From sequence record PZ583738.1: DNA of 64,000 nt, one strand, 5' to 3'. Below, one piece after another: positions 45,954-50,346 of this stretch. The notes beneath the pieces are model-generated. The model did no database searches, was not told where the DNA came from, and saw only the letters and a program-made list of their open reading frames with translations. The position numbers and the translations under genes are program-made. Within the stretch, counting starts at the first letter, position 1; every line of letters starts with the position of its first letter. The DNA is from a phage.

Positions 45954-46000
45954 TGTACATCCGAATTGACCAGGTGCATAATGATTCCATACTGAGTTAC
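45954..46000 (+). promoter_or_regulatory. early promoter plus conserved leader (cataatgattccatactgagttac)
   Basis: GTGTAC, 17 bp spacer, CATAAT; coordinates approximate. Confidence 0.45.
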
Positions 46001-46034
46001 ACACTGAATCAAAACAAAACTTTGGAGAAATAAA

Positions 46035-46460
46035 ATGAACTTTCTGACCCTGACCTCTGCATTCTCTGTTACCCGCATCACTAACAAAATGGTTGCTGAC
46101 GAAGTATGTGAAATCTGCATTCGTGAAGATGCACTTATCCATCTGACTTCAACCCAGATTGTTGCCATTGCCAAGTCTCTTAATTCTGAACTGAAGGTAA
46201 ACACCAAACAGTCAAAAGAATCTATCATTGAATTAATCCAAGCTGAAATGATTGAATTCCCAATTGAAGAAGTTAAAGAAGAAAAAATCCAGTCCAAATC
46301 TGGTAATGCTCGTGACATTTGCTTCCAGGCATTTGCAGAAATTGATATGAATGATAATGCTGCTCGTCGCGCTCTGATTGATGTTCTGGTTACCACCCAT
46401 GATATCAAAAAGACCGTTGTTCAGTCTTATGCTTCCAACTTCCGCAAAGCTCAAAAATAA
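46035..46460 (+). CDS. immediate-early protein with conserved C-terminal module (...AARRALIDVLV...QSYASNFRK)
   Basis: 141 aa; preceded by early promoter plus conserved leader; C-terminal about 50 aa paralogous to ORF 46913-47356. Confidence 0.6.
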   Translation: MNFLTLTSAFSVTRITNKMVADEVCEICIREDALIHLTSTQIVAIAKSLNSELKVNTKQSKESIIELIQAEMIEFPIEEVKEEKIQSKSGNARDICFQAFAEIDMNDNAARRALIDVLVTTHDIKKTVVQSYASNFRKAQK

Positions 46461-46471
46461 TTGAGAAAAGT

Positions 46472-46520
46472 GTTTTACTTCCAGGTGGGATAATGTATAA
46501 TTATCCCATACTGAGTTACC
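46472..46520 (+). promoter_or_regulatory. early promoter / stem-loop cassette (PeSL-like)
   Basis: GTTTTAC, 17 bp spacer, TATAAT inside gggataa...ttatccc inverted repeat. Confidence 0.5.
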
Positions 46521-46542
46521 AAATAAAACACTGGAGAATAAA

Positions 46543-46839
46543 ATGTTTAACGCACCTGCATGGCACGCTACCCAAGCTCAAGAAGAAAACAAAGCAATCA
46601 TTTCTGCTAAAATTGAAGCTCAACTGAATGAATTGTGTGAAACTGCTTCTGAAGAAGTTGTTGCAATCATCAAACAGTATCCTGCATCCAACTACTCCCT
46701 GGCATGCATCAAAACAGAAATGGTTAACTTGTGGCGTAAGAACAAGAAAACTTTCTTGGGTATGCAGTACCAAGCAATCGCGACTGCAGTAGTAAACATG
46801 TATGACTTTGAAGTTTATTTCCCAACTTCTGAAAATTAA
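46543..46839 (+). CDS. hypothetical early protein
   Basis: 98 aa; preceded by early promoter/stem-loop cassette and RBS GGAG. Confidence 0.55.
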   Translation: MFNAPAWHATQAQEENKAIISAKIEAQLNELCETASEEVVAIIKQYPASNYSLACIKTEMVNLWRKNKKTFLGMQYQAIATAVVNMYDFEVYFPTSEN

Positions 46840-46841
46840 TA

Positions 46842-46890
46842 TGTACTTTGAAATTTAACTAAGACATAATGATTCCATACTGAGTTACCA
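46842..46890 (+). promoter_or_regulatory. early promoter plus conserved leader
   Basis: -35-like ATGTAC, CATAAT, leader gattccatactgagttacc. Confidence 0.4.
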
Positions 46891-46912
46891 AATAAACAAA
46901 CGGGATAATAAA

Positions 46913-47356
46913 ATGAAAACTTCAAAACTGGTTAAGTACGTTAAACTGGCATTAAACAACTCTTCTGAAGCTGAAGCACAATCCGCAGCACGTATGTTCT
47001 TCAAACGTCTGACAGCTGAAGGTATTTCATTTAACCCGGCAGTATTTGGTATCACTCGTGGCGAAGCTGCTAAACTGGCAACTCTGGCAGGTAAAATTTT
47101 TAAAGGTCTGAATGATGAGCAGGTTAAACCAGAAGTTAAACCTACTCCTAAAGCTGAACCAAAAGCTGAACGTAAGGCACCTAAACGCTCCGGTATGAGC
47201 AACAAAGATTTGTGCTATGATATGTTCAAAACTGTTAATATGTCTAATGGTGCTGCTCGCAGAGCTGTTATTGATATGATTGTGCGTGAGTTTGGATTCA
47301 ACAAAGCATCAGTTCAGTCTTATGCTTCCAACTTCCGCAAAGAATTTGAAATTTAA
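46913..47356 (+). CDS. immediate-early protein, paralog of 46035-46460, with K/P/E-rich linker
   Basis: 147 aa; linker KPEVKPTPKAEPKAERKAPKR; C-terminus ...GAARRAVIDMIV...QSYASNFRKEFEI; last about 28 nt identical to paralog. Confidence 0.6.
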   Translation: MKTSKLVKYVKLALNNSSEAEAQSAARMFFKRLTAEGISFNPAVFGITRGEAAKLATLAGKIFKGLNDEQVKPEVKPTPKAEPKAERKAPKRSGMSNKDLCYDMFKTVNMSNGAARRAVIDMIVREFGFNKASVQSYASNFRKEFEI

Positions 47357-47358
47357 TT

Positions 47359-48056: not shown

Positions 48057-48099
48057 GATAAAAGGGGGCTTTGCCCCCTAATTGGGAGAGGAGAATATT

Positions 48100-48654
48100 A
48101 TGAGCTTATATACTGACCTTATATCAAATGTAGACTGGTTTAGTGGTAGTGGTCTTGCCACTGAAACTAACACGGTTCTTTACAGAATTCGCCAAGACCT
48201 GGGTTATTCCAATGATTTCTTAAGAAGAACGACAAGTCGCGGCGATACTACCAAATTGCCTTTTATTTTTGCTTTAGCTGAAGACCTTTCTTTTGCAGAT
48301 GCCTTGGAAATTATTGATGTAAATCTGGGTATTCAACGAGTGGAATTCGGTGGACTACGTTATTCAGTATATGCGTTAAATGACCCAGATGATTATAGGC
48401 AACTTATTAATGCGGACGATGGTGACCATTTGGTGTGTTATTTGATGTTGGAAAATGGTGACCACTTTGGAATGGTTGACCGCCGACCAACTTATACTGA
48501 TATTAAAAATTATGATAAAGATGAGCTTCTTGATTTGGCGGCTGAGTACACATTAGAGAGTCGTAAACGGAAACGTAAGCTTAATCGTTTTATTGCTGAA
48601 TGTCGTGAATATGCTAAAGGGGTTCAAAATGCGAACGCTATATCTGCCAAGTAA
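48100..48654 (+). CDS. hypothetical protein
   Basis: Start at ATG (MSLYTDL) after RBS; C-terminal ...NRFIAECREY junction motif. Confidence 0.5.
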   Translation: MSLYTDLISNVDWFSGSGLATETNTVLYRIRQDLGYSNDFLRRTTSRGDTTKLPFIFALAEDLSFADALEIIDVNLGIQRVEFGGLRYSVYALNDPDDYRQLINADDGDHLVCYLMLENGDHFGMVDRRPTYTDIKNYDKDELLDLAAEYTLESRKRKRKLNRFIAECREYAKGVQNANAISAK

Positions 48655-48988
48655 ACCAGAAAAATTTGTGTACGCAGACAAGATTGATAAAGACCTTATG
48701 CCTCCATTTGGAGCTTTGTCCATGTGCATCGTTGGGGTTATAATGATGGTGCTTTGTGGGGATATGAATATCATTAGTGTTGGAGTCGCCTGGTCACTAA
48801 TAATTGCAGCACCTTTTATTACAGTCCTGAGCATGATATTGATAAACGTGTGGCATCAAAATCATATGAATAAAGGATATCGTGGGCGAGTTAAAGAGTG
48901 GGAACAAAAATGTGTTTCCCTGCAAGAAGAGCACAAAATTAAATGTGCCGAAGAATTTATTAAGGAGGTTCGTAATGGAACGGCCTAG
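48629..48988 (+). CDS. small membrane protein
   Basis: Start at ATG MRTLYLP after RBS aaagggg; two hydrophobic helices; ends ...EEFIKEVRNGTA. Confidence 0.5.
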   Translation: MRTLYLPSKPEKFVYADKIDKDLMPPFGALSMCIVGVIMMVLCGDMNIISVGVAWSLIIAAPFITVLSMILINVWHQNHMNKGYRGRVKEWEQKCVSLQEEHKIKCAEEFIKEVRNGTA

Positions 48989-49328
48989 TCTTGCATCACA
49001 TGTTTATCAATTGGCTGAATATGATATTGGTGCCAGTTTATTATTAGGGATTGTCACCGCCATGCTTGGCGGTTTGGTTGGTCTGGTAATGACCACGGTT
49101 ATGGCTGCAATCGAGGGAGTCATGCCTATTGATATGGGCTTCTTTATGATAATTGCTCCGGCTGTTGTGGCTTATTTTATCCCTGTTGTGTATGATATCT
49201 GTCACACAAACGCCTTGAATGCTCCTAGTCGGAAGAGATATGCTTCAGCAATGGCTGAGTATAATAAGTTCCTAGACAAAACAAAACGTAATGACCTTGA
49301 AACCTTTATTAAGGAATGTAAATCATGA
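48975..49328 (+). CDS. small membrane protein
   Basis: Start at ATG MERPSLASH after RBS AAGGAGG; hydrophobic helices; ends ...ETFIKECKS. Confidence 0.5.
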   Translation: MERPSLASHVYQLAEYDIGASLLLGIVTAMLGGLVGLVMTTVMAAIEGVMPIDMGFFMIIAPAVVAYFIPVVYDICHTNALNAPSRKRYASAMAEYNKFLDKTKRNDLETFIKECKS

Positions 49329-49615
49329 ATAAAATTGAAATTGCTATCCCCAAGTATTATGATGAAAAATCTGCAGAAAAAGCTATCTATTCTCTTCTAA
49401 ATAAGACCTCTGAAATTGAAAAACACTGCGAAGAAATCGCAGATGAATACGGTATCCAATTCGGTACCGGTGATTATGGTTCAGGCCGTACATATTATCC
49501 TGTCGGTTATGAATGCTCCAAGTGGTTTAAAGATGAAATTGAAAACAACGGCGGCGAAGTTGAAAACGGTGTCGTTACAGTTGGTGCTTGGGTCTCCTCT
49601 TCGGCAATGTGCTAA
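49325..49615 (+). CDS. small protein ending in W-V-S-S-S-x-x-C
   Basis: 96 aa; ATGA-coupled start; C-terminal GAWVSSSAMC encoded by a repeated 3-prime DNA cassette. Confidence 0.5.
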   Translation: MNKIEIAIPKYYDEKSAEKAIYSLLNKTSEIEKHCEEIADEYGIQFGTGDYGSGRTYYPVGYECSKWFKDEIENNGGEVENGVVTVGAWVSSSAMC

Positions 49616-49624
49616 GGAAACTCT

Positions 49625-49906
49625 ATGATGAATGATTACCGTAAAAATAAAGAACTGGCTAACGCAGTAAATGACATCCATAAAGCTATTCGTCGTGCCG
49701 AGGAAATTGCAAACAAATATGAGACTCATTTTAATATATACCCTGCTCGCGGTATGGGCGGTGACTATTATTCTCCTGGCGCCCTGAAAGCCGACCTTGC
49801 TCATTGGGAAGAACATGGCCATCCTGAATGGGCTATTGTTAATACTCATGACTATACAACTGACCTGGAAAAAGGCGGTTGGGTGTCCTCCTCTTCTGAA
49901 TGTTAA
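49625..49906 (+). CDS. small protein ending in W-V-S-S-S-x-x-C
   Basis: 93 aa; RBS TAAGGAA upstream; C-terminal GGWVSSSSEC. Confidence 0.5.
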   Translation: MMNDYRKNKELANAVNDIHKAIRRAEEIANKYETHFNIYPARGMGGDYYSPGALKADLAHWEEHGHPEWAIVNTHDYTTDLEKGGWVSSSSEC

Positions 49907-49914
49907 GGAATGTT

Positions 49915-50112
49915 ATGTCTCGTGAATTAGATTGTGCAATCCGTACTGCTGCGGCAGCTATTGAAAACGTTATCCAGATTTGCAAAGAAGAACGCGAAGA
50001 AGCTGATATCTATATCGATGGTGTTCGTGACCTAGAACGACATATCACGCTTTATAATGGTTGTATTACAATTAGTGGTACCTCTTGGGTGTCCTCCTCT
50101 TACGAATGCTAA
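49915..50112 (+). CDS. small protein ending in W-V-S-S-S-x-x-C
   Basis: Start at ATG MSRELD after RBS TAAGGAA; C-terminal TSWVSSSYEC. Confidence 0.5.
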   Translation: MSRELDCAIRTAAAAIENVIQICKEEREEADIYIDGVRDLERHITLYNGCITISGTSWVSSSYEC

Positions 50113-50121
50113 GGAATAAAA

Positions 50122-50346
50122 ATGTCTGATATTAATGAATTAGAAAAAGCAGCACTTGAACTGGCTGCATTGTATAAGAAAGTAAAAGATATGGCTAACG
50201 CTCAAGATTTCGGTATTGAGCTTGACGAATATGATGGTGAGGTTCGTCTCGAAGACTGGTTGTACAGCTCTTGCTATGGCGAAGACGCTGGTCGCACCTT
50301 TGTTGCTCAACCTGACGGTAAAATCTGGCACCCGAGTAGCTGCTAA
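50122..50346 (+). CDS. small acidic protein ending in ...WHPSSC
   Basis: 74 aa; RBS TAAGGAA upstream; degenerate version of the same C-terminal motif. Confidence 0.45.
   Translation: MSDINELEKAALELAALYKKVKDMANAQDFGIELDEYDGEVRLEDWLYSSCYGEDAGRTFVAQPDGKIWHPSSC

Follow-up and report, generated by a model that had tools for sequence, protein, structure and literature searches.

Small tail genes and g13 form a phage-specific two-family module in a T4-type hyperplastic early region

Introduction

The closest described counterpart of the locus studied here is the segment of bacteriophage T4 that runs from the tRNA genes through e.8...e.2 to nudE and the lysozyme gene e. The T4 genes e.2-e.8 are expressed and dispensable in the laboratory: all are early at the RNA level, and detection of their proteins is documented as well (PMC9697503 supplementary files 4 and 6); 'Not Fit' is the label given to the CRISPRi-ART guides shown for e.2-e.6 and e.8 (PMC11879866 supplementary file 25); and a T4 transposon screen against RexAB, RnlAB, CBASS, DarTG1 and DarTG2 returned other genes and none of e.2-e.8 (10.1101/2025.11.20.689424). 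T4-type phages exchange ORFans in their hyperplastic regions through recombination between promoter-early stem-loop (PeSL) cassettes, and the early promoters of the T4/PST type follow the consensus TTTACW-N17-TAYWAT (PMC2839356, PMC4122927). Here we analyze a 64,000-nucleotide stretch of phage DNA (sequence record PZ583738.1; hereafter the window, numbered from its first letter, with all features on the + strand unless stated), in which a preliminary description had set apart a run of small genes (46035-50346, with upstream signals from 45954). We show that four of these genes, g8-g11, which encode small acidic proteins with a common C-terminal tail, form together with g13, a gene lying 3' of the run, a phage-specific module of two gene families.

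Judged by its sequence, about 95% identical at the nucleotide level to VR20, SP18 and VR7, the source phage is a T4-like Gaprivervirus (Straboviridae, Tevenvirinae), and the run is probably the Gaprivervirus version of the non-essential 'e.8-e.2' hyperplastic region that in T4 extends from the tRNA genes to nudE/e, here built as a three-part mosaic. The preliminary description had treated the run as a single module; it is composed of PeSL-like cassettes, a conserved operon equivalent to T4 e.6-e.3, and one half, the first, of the two-family module, three parts (A, B and C) that are mutually unrelated and differ in evolutionary behavior. The interest of the locus lies in the module around its four tiny genes, which continues past the run as first delimited.

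Results

Tail genes are linked to g13 across phages

As we would divide the locus, Part C extends from 49325-50346 onward to 51596 and comprises the four paralogous small acidic tail proteins and g13. The linkage of the two families was followed from both sides. A degenerate DNA pattern of the tail, scanned against viral contigs, located tail genes directly 5' of a g13 homologue in contigs of 45 kb, 120 kb and 185 kb and in a 448-kb megaphage contig, and g13 was present in all 17 of the 17 loci that had enough downstream DNA. In the reciprocal scan, an alignment of g13 homologues served as the query against viral contigs, and 80 of 214 loci, reaching to about 40% identity, were kept; the linkage count is based on 78 analysable loci. 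One to five tail genes were detected upstream of g13 on the same strand in 69 of these 78 by hidden Markov model (HMM) and in four more by the tail regular expression only, while a tail gene was located downstream in 2 and on the opposite strand in 0. The median gap between the tail genes and g13 was 425 nt. Clustering of all neighbors showed the tail family in 21 of 25 g13 clades and no other neighbor family in more than 4 clades, and the pair was also found in a Phapecoctavirus, a member of a different phage group. Relatives of g13 were present in 732 phage records, with hosts including Escherichia, Acinetobacter, Aeromonas, Pseudomonas, Vibrio, Gordonia and Streptomyces among others; a scan of 185,579 species genomes of bacteria and archaea gave matches in six contigs of metagenome-assembled genomes only, four of which carried tail genes. 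Together, the data show that the tail genes and g13 constitute a phage-specific module of two gene families in near-obligate, oriented, same-strand linkage.

Several observations speak against a strict coupling of the two families. Nine of the 78 g13 loci were without an HMM-detectable tail gene, and tail genes are absent from a distant clade of shorter g13 relatives in phages of Streptomyces and Gordonia and in Vibrio phage K408. The linkage itself indicates a common function and leaves its direction free, such that the tail proteins may be substrates, regulators, adaptors or complex subunits with respect to g13. The distant clade (Annadreamy, L135:2878-3968; BrutonGaster, L136:1974-3145; K408, L140:2818-3979; coordinates on our locus records) carries K-T-I-T-S in place of an otherwise invariant K-V-C-T-S, with Ile at the position equivalent to g13 C272, and is followed downstream by a different conserved protein, about 112-126 aa in length, whose C-terminus reads ...V-x-P-[VA]-Q-[KQ]-x-I-T.

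The tail proteins share a nearly invariant C-terminal end

The four tail genes follow one another closely. The start of g8 (49325..49615; tail protein A, 96 aa, ending ...GAWVSSSAMC) overlaps the stop codon of g7 (ATGA); g9 (49625..49906; tail protein B, 93 aa) ends in ...GGWVSSSSEC and has a central RGMGGDYYSPG; g10 (49915..50112; tail protein C, 65 aa, or 70 aa from the ATG at 49900) ends in ...TSWVSSSYEC; and g11 (50122..50346; tail protein D, 74 aa, ending ...KIWHPSSC) is the last gene of the coupled unit and holds an internal copy of the motif, DWLYSSCYGE. The common C-terminal motif that had been noticed in these four tiny proteins is real and reads W-x-x-S-S-(x-x)-C. When 1.84 billion representative proteins were searched with a profile built from g8-g11 and their close relatives, at least 184 clusters at 50% identity were retrieved (E <= 1e-3), nearly all of 65-140 aa and with the match reaching the last residue. 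The tail family is large and previously undescribed. Its members are acidic (median net charge -8), measure about 87 aa and display an N-terminal helix (...EAE.IAD..G..F), a central Y-G-M-G-G-T-Y-Y-P, an acidic linker and the end G-x-W-x-[S/P/A]-S-S-x-x-C. The terminal Cys was found in 140 of the 148 matches read, and these 140 proteins carry W at -7 (135/140), S at -4 (139/140) and S at -3 (138/140); in 91 proteins the terminal Cys is the only one. Such invariance is partly inflated, as the search profile itself contains the tail. The AlphaFold2 (AF2) model of g8 has a pLDDT of 90.5, with 72 for the last block, i.e. the tail, and the fold of the family is confidently predicted, with no solved relative in searches of the PDB.

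The family also shows variation in copy number and architecture. In some phages as many as five or six tail genes follow one another (L087-L134, e.g. L121:1506-2988), and some genes of such multi-copy arrays have degenerate ends, W-x-x-S-H-C or W-x-G-S-S-C. Internal repeats of the form W-x-x-S-S-(x)-C-Y-G are present in some members. Other genes of the arrays encode longer proteins, of 140-175 aa, that end in the identical tail, indicating that the tail can be attached to other protein bodies. T4 gp49.3 (L147:47823-48131; 102 aa, ending ...SSWWCEK) matched the tail profile weakly (E = 0.0013) and could be either a degenerate relative or a chance match.

A conserved end in closely packed genes could arise without any functional coupling, if overlapping translation signals produced the motif incidentally and the linkage to g13 were inherited synteny. 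The sequence TAAGGAA that follows the stop codons of g8, g9 and g10 is indeed the Shine-Dalgarno site of the next gene, and a different C-terminal motif, that of g5, g6, g7 and the e.2-like g16, does coincide with the next Shine-Dalgarno site (see below). Yet the Ser codons of the tail are TCN in g8-g10 and AGT/AGC in g11, and g11 retains the tail with no coupled gene 3' of it, indicating that selection acts on the protein sequence of the tail; codon usage and g11 thus rule out that the tail is a mere side-effect of translational coupling. The tail is moreover conserved throughout a diverse family, and the linkage holds in clades whose other neighbors differ, as well as across phage families and genome sizes. 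An absence of functional coupling is in our view hardly credible.

g13 resembles an enzyme

g13 (50631..51596) encodes a 321-aa protein with the Pfam domains DUF7277 and DUF7275. In an alignment of 21 homologues, the N-terminus shows invariant G6 and D25-x-D27 and, in >= 90% of them, S7, and a conserved E-x-E-I follows further on, a pattern that fits the minimal motif of Pol-beta-type nucleotidyltransferases, hG[GS] ... [DE]h[DE]h ... h[DE]h. The conserved polar residues of the C-terminal domain, nearly every one of which is invariant, are K125, S127, H128, N133, K139, R165, H194-D195, H198, E240, E241, E248, R249, K270, C272, S277-G278 and R281. This density of conserved polar residues points to an enzyme, and g13 may be a nucleotidyltransferase. 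The class assignment has points against it: the motif is short and was recognized by eye only; profile support amounts to one weak match to DUF6036 (nucleotidyltransferase), with E = 0.053 in 1 of 21 homologues, Pfam otherwise giving DUF7277/DUF7275 only; a direct hhalign comparison with kanamycin nucleotidyltransferase was negative (probability 0.15%); and a profile search of the PDB gave no relative. PADLOC returned one match among the 21 homologues (E = 0.014, 1/21). T4 nrdC.11, annotated as a nucleotidyltransferase, was considered and is not a relative of g13.

We infer that g13 binds or chemically modifies the tail. In the mechanism that we propose, g13 would recognize the constant tail and modify its Ser-Ser/Cys end, possibly by nucleotidylylation, and differing specificities would come from the acidic bodies, which vary among the paralogues. 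That g13 and the tail proteins cooperate physically has about an even chance of being right. A wider reading, that of an undescribed phage-specific protein-tail system in which one enzyme recognizes and modifies, or uses, an invariant Ser-Ser/Cys tail on arrays of exchangeable small acidic proteins of new fold, whose variable bodies address different host factors, is quite possible though it falls somewhat short of probable. Nucleotidylylation specifically, as the chemistry of g13, is a tentative suggestion, more doubtful than convincing.

Two other arrangements of enzyme and tail were weighed. Nucleotidyltransferases paired with small partners are familiar from MNT-HEPN, MenT/MenA and AbiE, and by this precedent the tail proteins might be antitoxin-like regulators or interchangeable adaptors, with g13 modifying host targets such as tRNA or proteins and the tail docking the paralogues onto it, so as to hold it in check or direct it to another target. 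One g13 accompanies one to five paralogues whose bodies differ and whose tail is constant, the tail is modelled less confidently than the body, as would be expected of a docking peptide, and tRNA or RNA-ligase genes are frequent in the vicinity of the module. That vicinity is, however, anecdotal, such genes not being among the conserved neighbors of g13, and g13 shows no similarity to the MNT, AbiEii and MenT profiles in Pfam and PADLOC. We regard this predicted role as unlikely.

Tandem small paralogous genes beside a single enzyme-like gene also bring to mind the loci of ribosomally synthesized and post-translationally modified peptides (RiPPs), such as lanthipeptides and aminovinyl-cysteine (AviCys) peptides. 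By this reading the tail proteins would be RiPP-like precursors in which, once a tail Ser has been activated by g13, a lanthionine- or AviCys-like thioether ring is closed by the terminal Cys at S-S-x-x-C-COOH. The peptides that form AviCys have the spacing S-x-x-C-COOH, which the invariant Ser-Ser and terminal Cys of the tail resemble. Unlike RiPPs, in which the opposite holds, the tail proteins would have their 'core' as the most conserved portion, the remainder being a folded domain of 70-100 aa; tail protein D (g11) ends in S-S-C with no spacer; and no LanB, LanC, LanM, LanD or radical-SAM domain, nor any other known RiPP enzyme domain, was found among the neighbors (Pfam scan of g12-g17 and the conserved neighbors). 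A RiPP-type pathway is very improbable, and recognition and modification of the tail by g13 remains the reading that we prefer.

Repeats of a predicted early promoter and leader precede g1-g4

Part A (45894-47462) may be viewed as three single-gene cassettes, g1, g2 and g3, each with its own unit of ~100 bp consisting of early promoter, leader and Shine-Dalgarno site. CATAATGATTCCATACTGAGTTAC is present 5' of g1, g2, g3 and g4, with a chance expectation of 0. The unit starts with an A/T-rich stretch, followed by a -35 element (T/G/A)TAC(A/T), a spacer of 16-17 nt and a -10 element (C/T)ATAAT; 3' of the -10 element come the leader GAT(T/C)CCATACTGAGTTAC, a spacer rich in A and finally the Shine-Dalgarno site, GGAG/GGAT. 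The 24-nt core of promoter and leader occurs in 5 copies in the 64 kb, as compared with 0 expected from shuffled sequence. The fifth unit (5095-5190, core at 5142, with one mismatch in the 24-nt core) precedes another gene, indicating that the unit is a genome-wide early-gene cassette rather than specific to this block.

The first cassette is preceded by a G+C stem-loop with a T-run (AGCCCGCAATGCGGGCT TTTTT; 45894..45910), found by terminator scan and inspection, which serves the upstream gene as terminator and at the same time makes up the stem-loop part of the cassette. Copy 1 (45954..46034) reads TGTACA-N17-CATAAT and continues into the leader GATTCCATACTGAGTTAC and a GGAG Shine-Dalgarno site in front of g1 (46035..46460; 141 aa, phrog_9997). 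Copy 2 (46474..46542; TTTACT-N16-TATAAT) has the leader of copy 1 and likewise a GGAG site, the two Shine-Dalgarno sites that contain this sequence, and precedes g2 (46543..46839; 98 aa, phrog_27242); copy 3 (46842..46912; TGTACT-N17-CATAAT), again with the leader of copy 1, precedes g3 (46913..47356; 147 aa, phrog_18416). A polyG/polyC stem-loop, AGGGGGTATACAAGCCCCCT (47362-47381), overlaps the -35 element of copy 4 (TATACA-N17-CATAAT, from 47368; stem-loop and copy together 47362..47462), which has a separate Shine-Dalgarno site for the e.6 homologue g4. A further polyG/polyC stem-loop with no T-run on the + strand lies between e.6 and g5 (48063..48079, not assigned to a strand).

The preliminary description had recognized the genes at 46035 and 46913 as paralogs with a shared C-terminal module, as borne out by BLASTP (43% identity over 75 aa, E = 8e-18). 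The common module measures ~55-75 aa and also occurs as a stand-alone protein, phrog_17275; Pfam and the PDB contained no relative of it. g1 is mildly acidic; in g3, which is strongly basic (pI about 10), a linker rich in K/P/E precedes the module. Gene content around these cassettes differs between related phages: g1 is present in VR7, SP18 and EAWsc9, the g2 cassette gene in VR7 and the window only and in neither SP18 nor EAWsc9, and SP18 and EAWsc9 carry additional genes relative to the window. VR7 has a truncated g3 and neither e.6 nor g5; its g3 homologue passes after 62 codons directly into e.4 (L003:4007-4514), apparently through a deletion of the remainder of g3 together with e.6 and g5.

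The repeats of Part A fit PeSL-type elements. They resemble these in the repeated early promoter, the A/T-rich upstream region, the polyG/polyC stem-loops that accompany some of the copies and the location in a hyperplastic region, and in that the flanking ORFans are inserted, deleted or replaced among VR7, SP18, EAWsc9 and the window. They differ in that the repeat of the window continues ~35 nt past the -10 element into a conserved 5' leader and Shine-Dalgarno site. The copies of the window are known from sequence, whereas the published PeSL data include promoter activity, terminator activity and mini-circles (PMC2839356). The four sigma70/T4-early-like promoter/leader copies suggest early sigma70 transcription from the repeated promoters. 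Weighing against these assignments, the copies before g2 and g3, two of the four, are without a G/C stem-loop, a generic promoter scan found 27 sites as compared with 24.8 expected, i.e. no overall enrichment, and early transcription is read from consensus matches. The notion that each sub-block has its own promoter and leader holds for g1, g2, g3 and g4, and fails for g5-g11, between which no promoter was found.

Homologues of T4 e.6-e.3 and their dual-coding junctions

Part B (47463-49328) corresponds to the conserved T4 early genes e.6, e.4 and e.3 together with a gene at the e.5 position. From e.6 onward, the predicted products are a protein with a helical hairpin, one that is soluble and acidic, and two membrane proteins with two transmembrane (TM) segments each. 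The claim that the run has no T4 counterpart is therefore wrong for three to four of its genes, those at 47463 (e.6), 48629 (e.4), 48975 (e.3) and, by position, 48100 (e.5). g4 (47463..48056; 197 aa) is 75% identical to T4 e.6 over 197/197 aa (E = 5e-105), occupies the same genomic position and matches phrog_1203 (E = 4e-84), the family to which T4 e.6 is assigned; homologues of e.6 with 48-99% identity occur in the T4-like phages of Escherichia, Klebsiella, Pectobacterium, Serratia, Yersinia and Aeromonas. g5 (48100..48654; 184 aa, soluble and acidic), preceded by a similar ribosome-binding stretch, GAGGAGAATATTATG, has phrog_8788 as its best family; it lies at the e.5 position and matches e.5 only in the last ~15 aa, F-I-x-E-C-R-E-Y (E = 0.001; phrog_2607, the e.5 family, E = 0.0066 over 33 aa). 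g6 (48629..48988; 119 aa) overlaps g5 by 26 nt and matches T4 e.4 (phrog_2604; 33% identity, E = 2e-15), and g7 (48975..49328; 117 aa) overlaps g6 by 14 nt and matches T4 e.3 (phrog_2330; 22% identity, E = 1e-8), each with a PHROG E of about 1e-45. Both carry two hydrophobic segments of TM length, in agreement with their preliminary description as small membrane proteins.

The coiled-coil protein proposed for the gene at 47463 was likewise borne out, the AF2 model of e.6 (pLDDT 74.5) being all-helical, with a helix at 3-22, a hairpin or coiled-coil formed by 25-80/86-145, and two short helices. This topology of an N-terminal amphipathic helix, long hairpin and short helices, and the position of the gene adjoining membrane-protein genes, raised the option that e.6 is a membrane remodeller of the PspA/Vipp1/ESCRT-III type acting with the 2-TM proteins e.4, e.3 and e.2. 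hhalign of e.6 against E. coli PspA nevertheless gave a probability of 0.8%, and 0 of 26 e.6 homologues matched PspA_IM30 or Snf7 in Pfam. At the sequence level the relationship is rejected and the fold match is non-specific, that of a generic helical hairpin; we consider this role quite improbable.

The genes g5-g11 overlap or are 8-9 nt apart, with overlaps of 26, 14 and 4 nt from g5 to g8, and would thus form one translationally coupled unit. The C-terminal sequence F-[IV]-x-[ED]-[CVS]-[RK] is common to g5, g6, g7, g16 and T4 e.3, e.4 and e.5. It is encoded by TTTATT(A/G)AGGA(A/G), a sequence that also provides the overlapping cistron that follows with its Shine-Dalgarno site, indicating that the junction segment has a double coding role. 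Repeats of this dual-coding junction are located at 48600-48640, 48955-48990, 49300-49330 and 53545-53575. The repeated junction suggests that e.2, e.3 and e.4 may derive from tandem duplication.

Genomic position, neighboring genes and relatives

Over 45900-50400 the window is 93-96% identical at the DNA level to the Escherichia/Shigella phages VR20, DK-13, SP18, VR25, VR26 and VR7. Its gene order, two tRNAs (44220-44372), three small ORFs, the block, an e.2-like gene, nudE (about 53796-54257), lysozyme e (54284-54778) and denV, is syntenic with the T4 segment tRNA - e.8...e.2 - nudE - e. The first tRNA (44220-44295) is called tRNA-Met (CAT) by ARAGORN, and its counterpart is annotated as tRNA-Ile2 (CAT) in EAWsc9 and as tRNA-Met in SP18 and VR7; among relatives, the number of tRNAs at this site ranges from 1 to 3. 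The gene directly 5' of the block (45338-45892; 184 aa) has an N-terminal hydrophobic segment and the Pfam domain DUF7338 (E = 8e-63) and is present in EAWsc9 and not in the SP18 and VR7 loci. An Rfam scan gave the two tRNAs and a sub-threshold STnc370 match on the terminator (45884-45951), and nothing else.

Downstream of g11, a promoter-like site, TGTACA-N17-TATCAT, with the ribosome-binding site CTAATGAGGAAAATATT (50393..50449) precedes g12 (50450..50617; 55 aa, phrog_20278); CTAATGAGGAAAATATT followed by ATG is identical before g12 (50433-50449) and g13 (50614-50630). Directly after g13, with a 4-nt ATGA overlap, comes g14 (51593..52243), an HNH-type homing endonuclease (phrog_374, E = 1e-59) present in VR7 and the window and not in SP18 or EAWsc9. 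It is followed by g15 (52303..52989; 228 aa, phrog_1843, RB69 ORF132c-like) and g16 (52983..53573; 196 aa), the e.2-like membrane protein, assigned by T4 match and ending in the C-terminal F-I-E-E-C-R-K.

Of the run of about 12 small genes first described, 11 + strand ORFs (g1-g11) were found within 46035-50346, each matching a PHROG family (E = 2e-9 to 4e-111), which indicates that they are real and conserved; every one of these families is labelled 'unknown function', and the block of such genes extends beyond 50346, to 53573. Pfam and NCBIfam scans of g1-g11 showed nothing above noise, and a PADLOC scan of g1-g9 and g11 gave no match, the libraries searched holding no anti-defence models. 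Sequence and profile searches of the PDB with e.6, g3, g5, g13 and the tail family returned coiled-coil or designed-helix noise only. In the literature on the e.x genes, DUF7275, DUF7277, the PHROG identifiers and C-terminal cysteine with nucleotidyltransferase, we found no functional description.

Discussion

Several proteins of this run are small and acidic, a trait found in many known phage inhibitors, and the run had been proposed to be a dedicated immediate-early module for host takeover or anti-defence, each member inhibiting a host machine or immune system. Its early-type promoters, the early expression and laboratory dispensability of the T4 homologues and the gene content that differs among close relatives are in line with such a role. 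Against it, the run consists of three parts with differing evolution and is not one unit; the conservation of e.6, at 48-75% identity across T4-like phages of many hosts, is unusual for a gene in an arms race; the T4 screen against five defence systems returned none of e.2-e.8 (10.1101/2025.11.20.689424); and no member matched a characterised family, which is weak evidence as the libraries searched were free of anti-defence models. A module dedicated as a whole to takeover or anti-defence is on the unlikely side, and the data neither support nor exclude an anti-defence role of the block. The early character of the genes is plausible from the promoter/leader copies and from the early RNA of T4 e.2-e.8 (PMC9697503), even if it is the T4 genes that were measured. 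An accessory role is plausible as well, as T4 guides were labelled 'Not Fit' (PMC11879866) and gene content varies among relatives. The anatomy given by the preliminary description is largely right; its claims of a lack of T4 counterparts and of a single module are not. As first delimited, the block is an ordinary T4-type hyperplastic early region, four genes of which are already catalogued T4 genes.

With the tail genes and g13, a 'pile of ORFans' becomes a defined two-component system that is directly testable. Modification of the tail by g13, if it occurs, would add a new type to viral protein modification or carrier chemistry.

Compared with the e.8-e.2 region of T4, the window shares the genome position and orientation, homologues of e.6, e.4, e.3 and e.2, and the overlapping junctions in which F-[IV]-x-E-C-[RK] lies over the Shine-Dalgarno site of the next gene. 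It differs in that T4 has e.7 and e.8 in place of g1-g3, in that the gene at the e.5 position is essentially unrelated, and in that neither the tail family nor g13 was found in T4 positions 1-75.5 kb; the PHROG identifiers of tail and g13, phrog_899/phrog_2141, are likewise missing from the supplementary tables that carry the PHROG assignments of T4 (PMC11879866).

For the proposed partnership of g13 and the tail proteins, the nearest comparison is with known enzyme-partner pairs, by analogy only. Enzymes of the nucleotidyltransferase type that modify a residue of a small partner include GlnD, acting on PII, CitX/MdcG, acting on acyl carrier protein, and MNT, acting on HEPN. The G-S...D-x-D of g13 is similarly paired with small acidic proteins that carry an invariant Ser. 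Unlike the enzymes of these pairs, g13 has no sequence or profile similarity to them, the conserved site of its presumed partners is a Cys-ending C-terminal tail, several paralogous partners accompany each g13, and the module is phage-specific.

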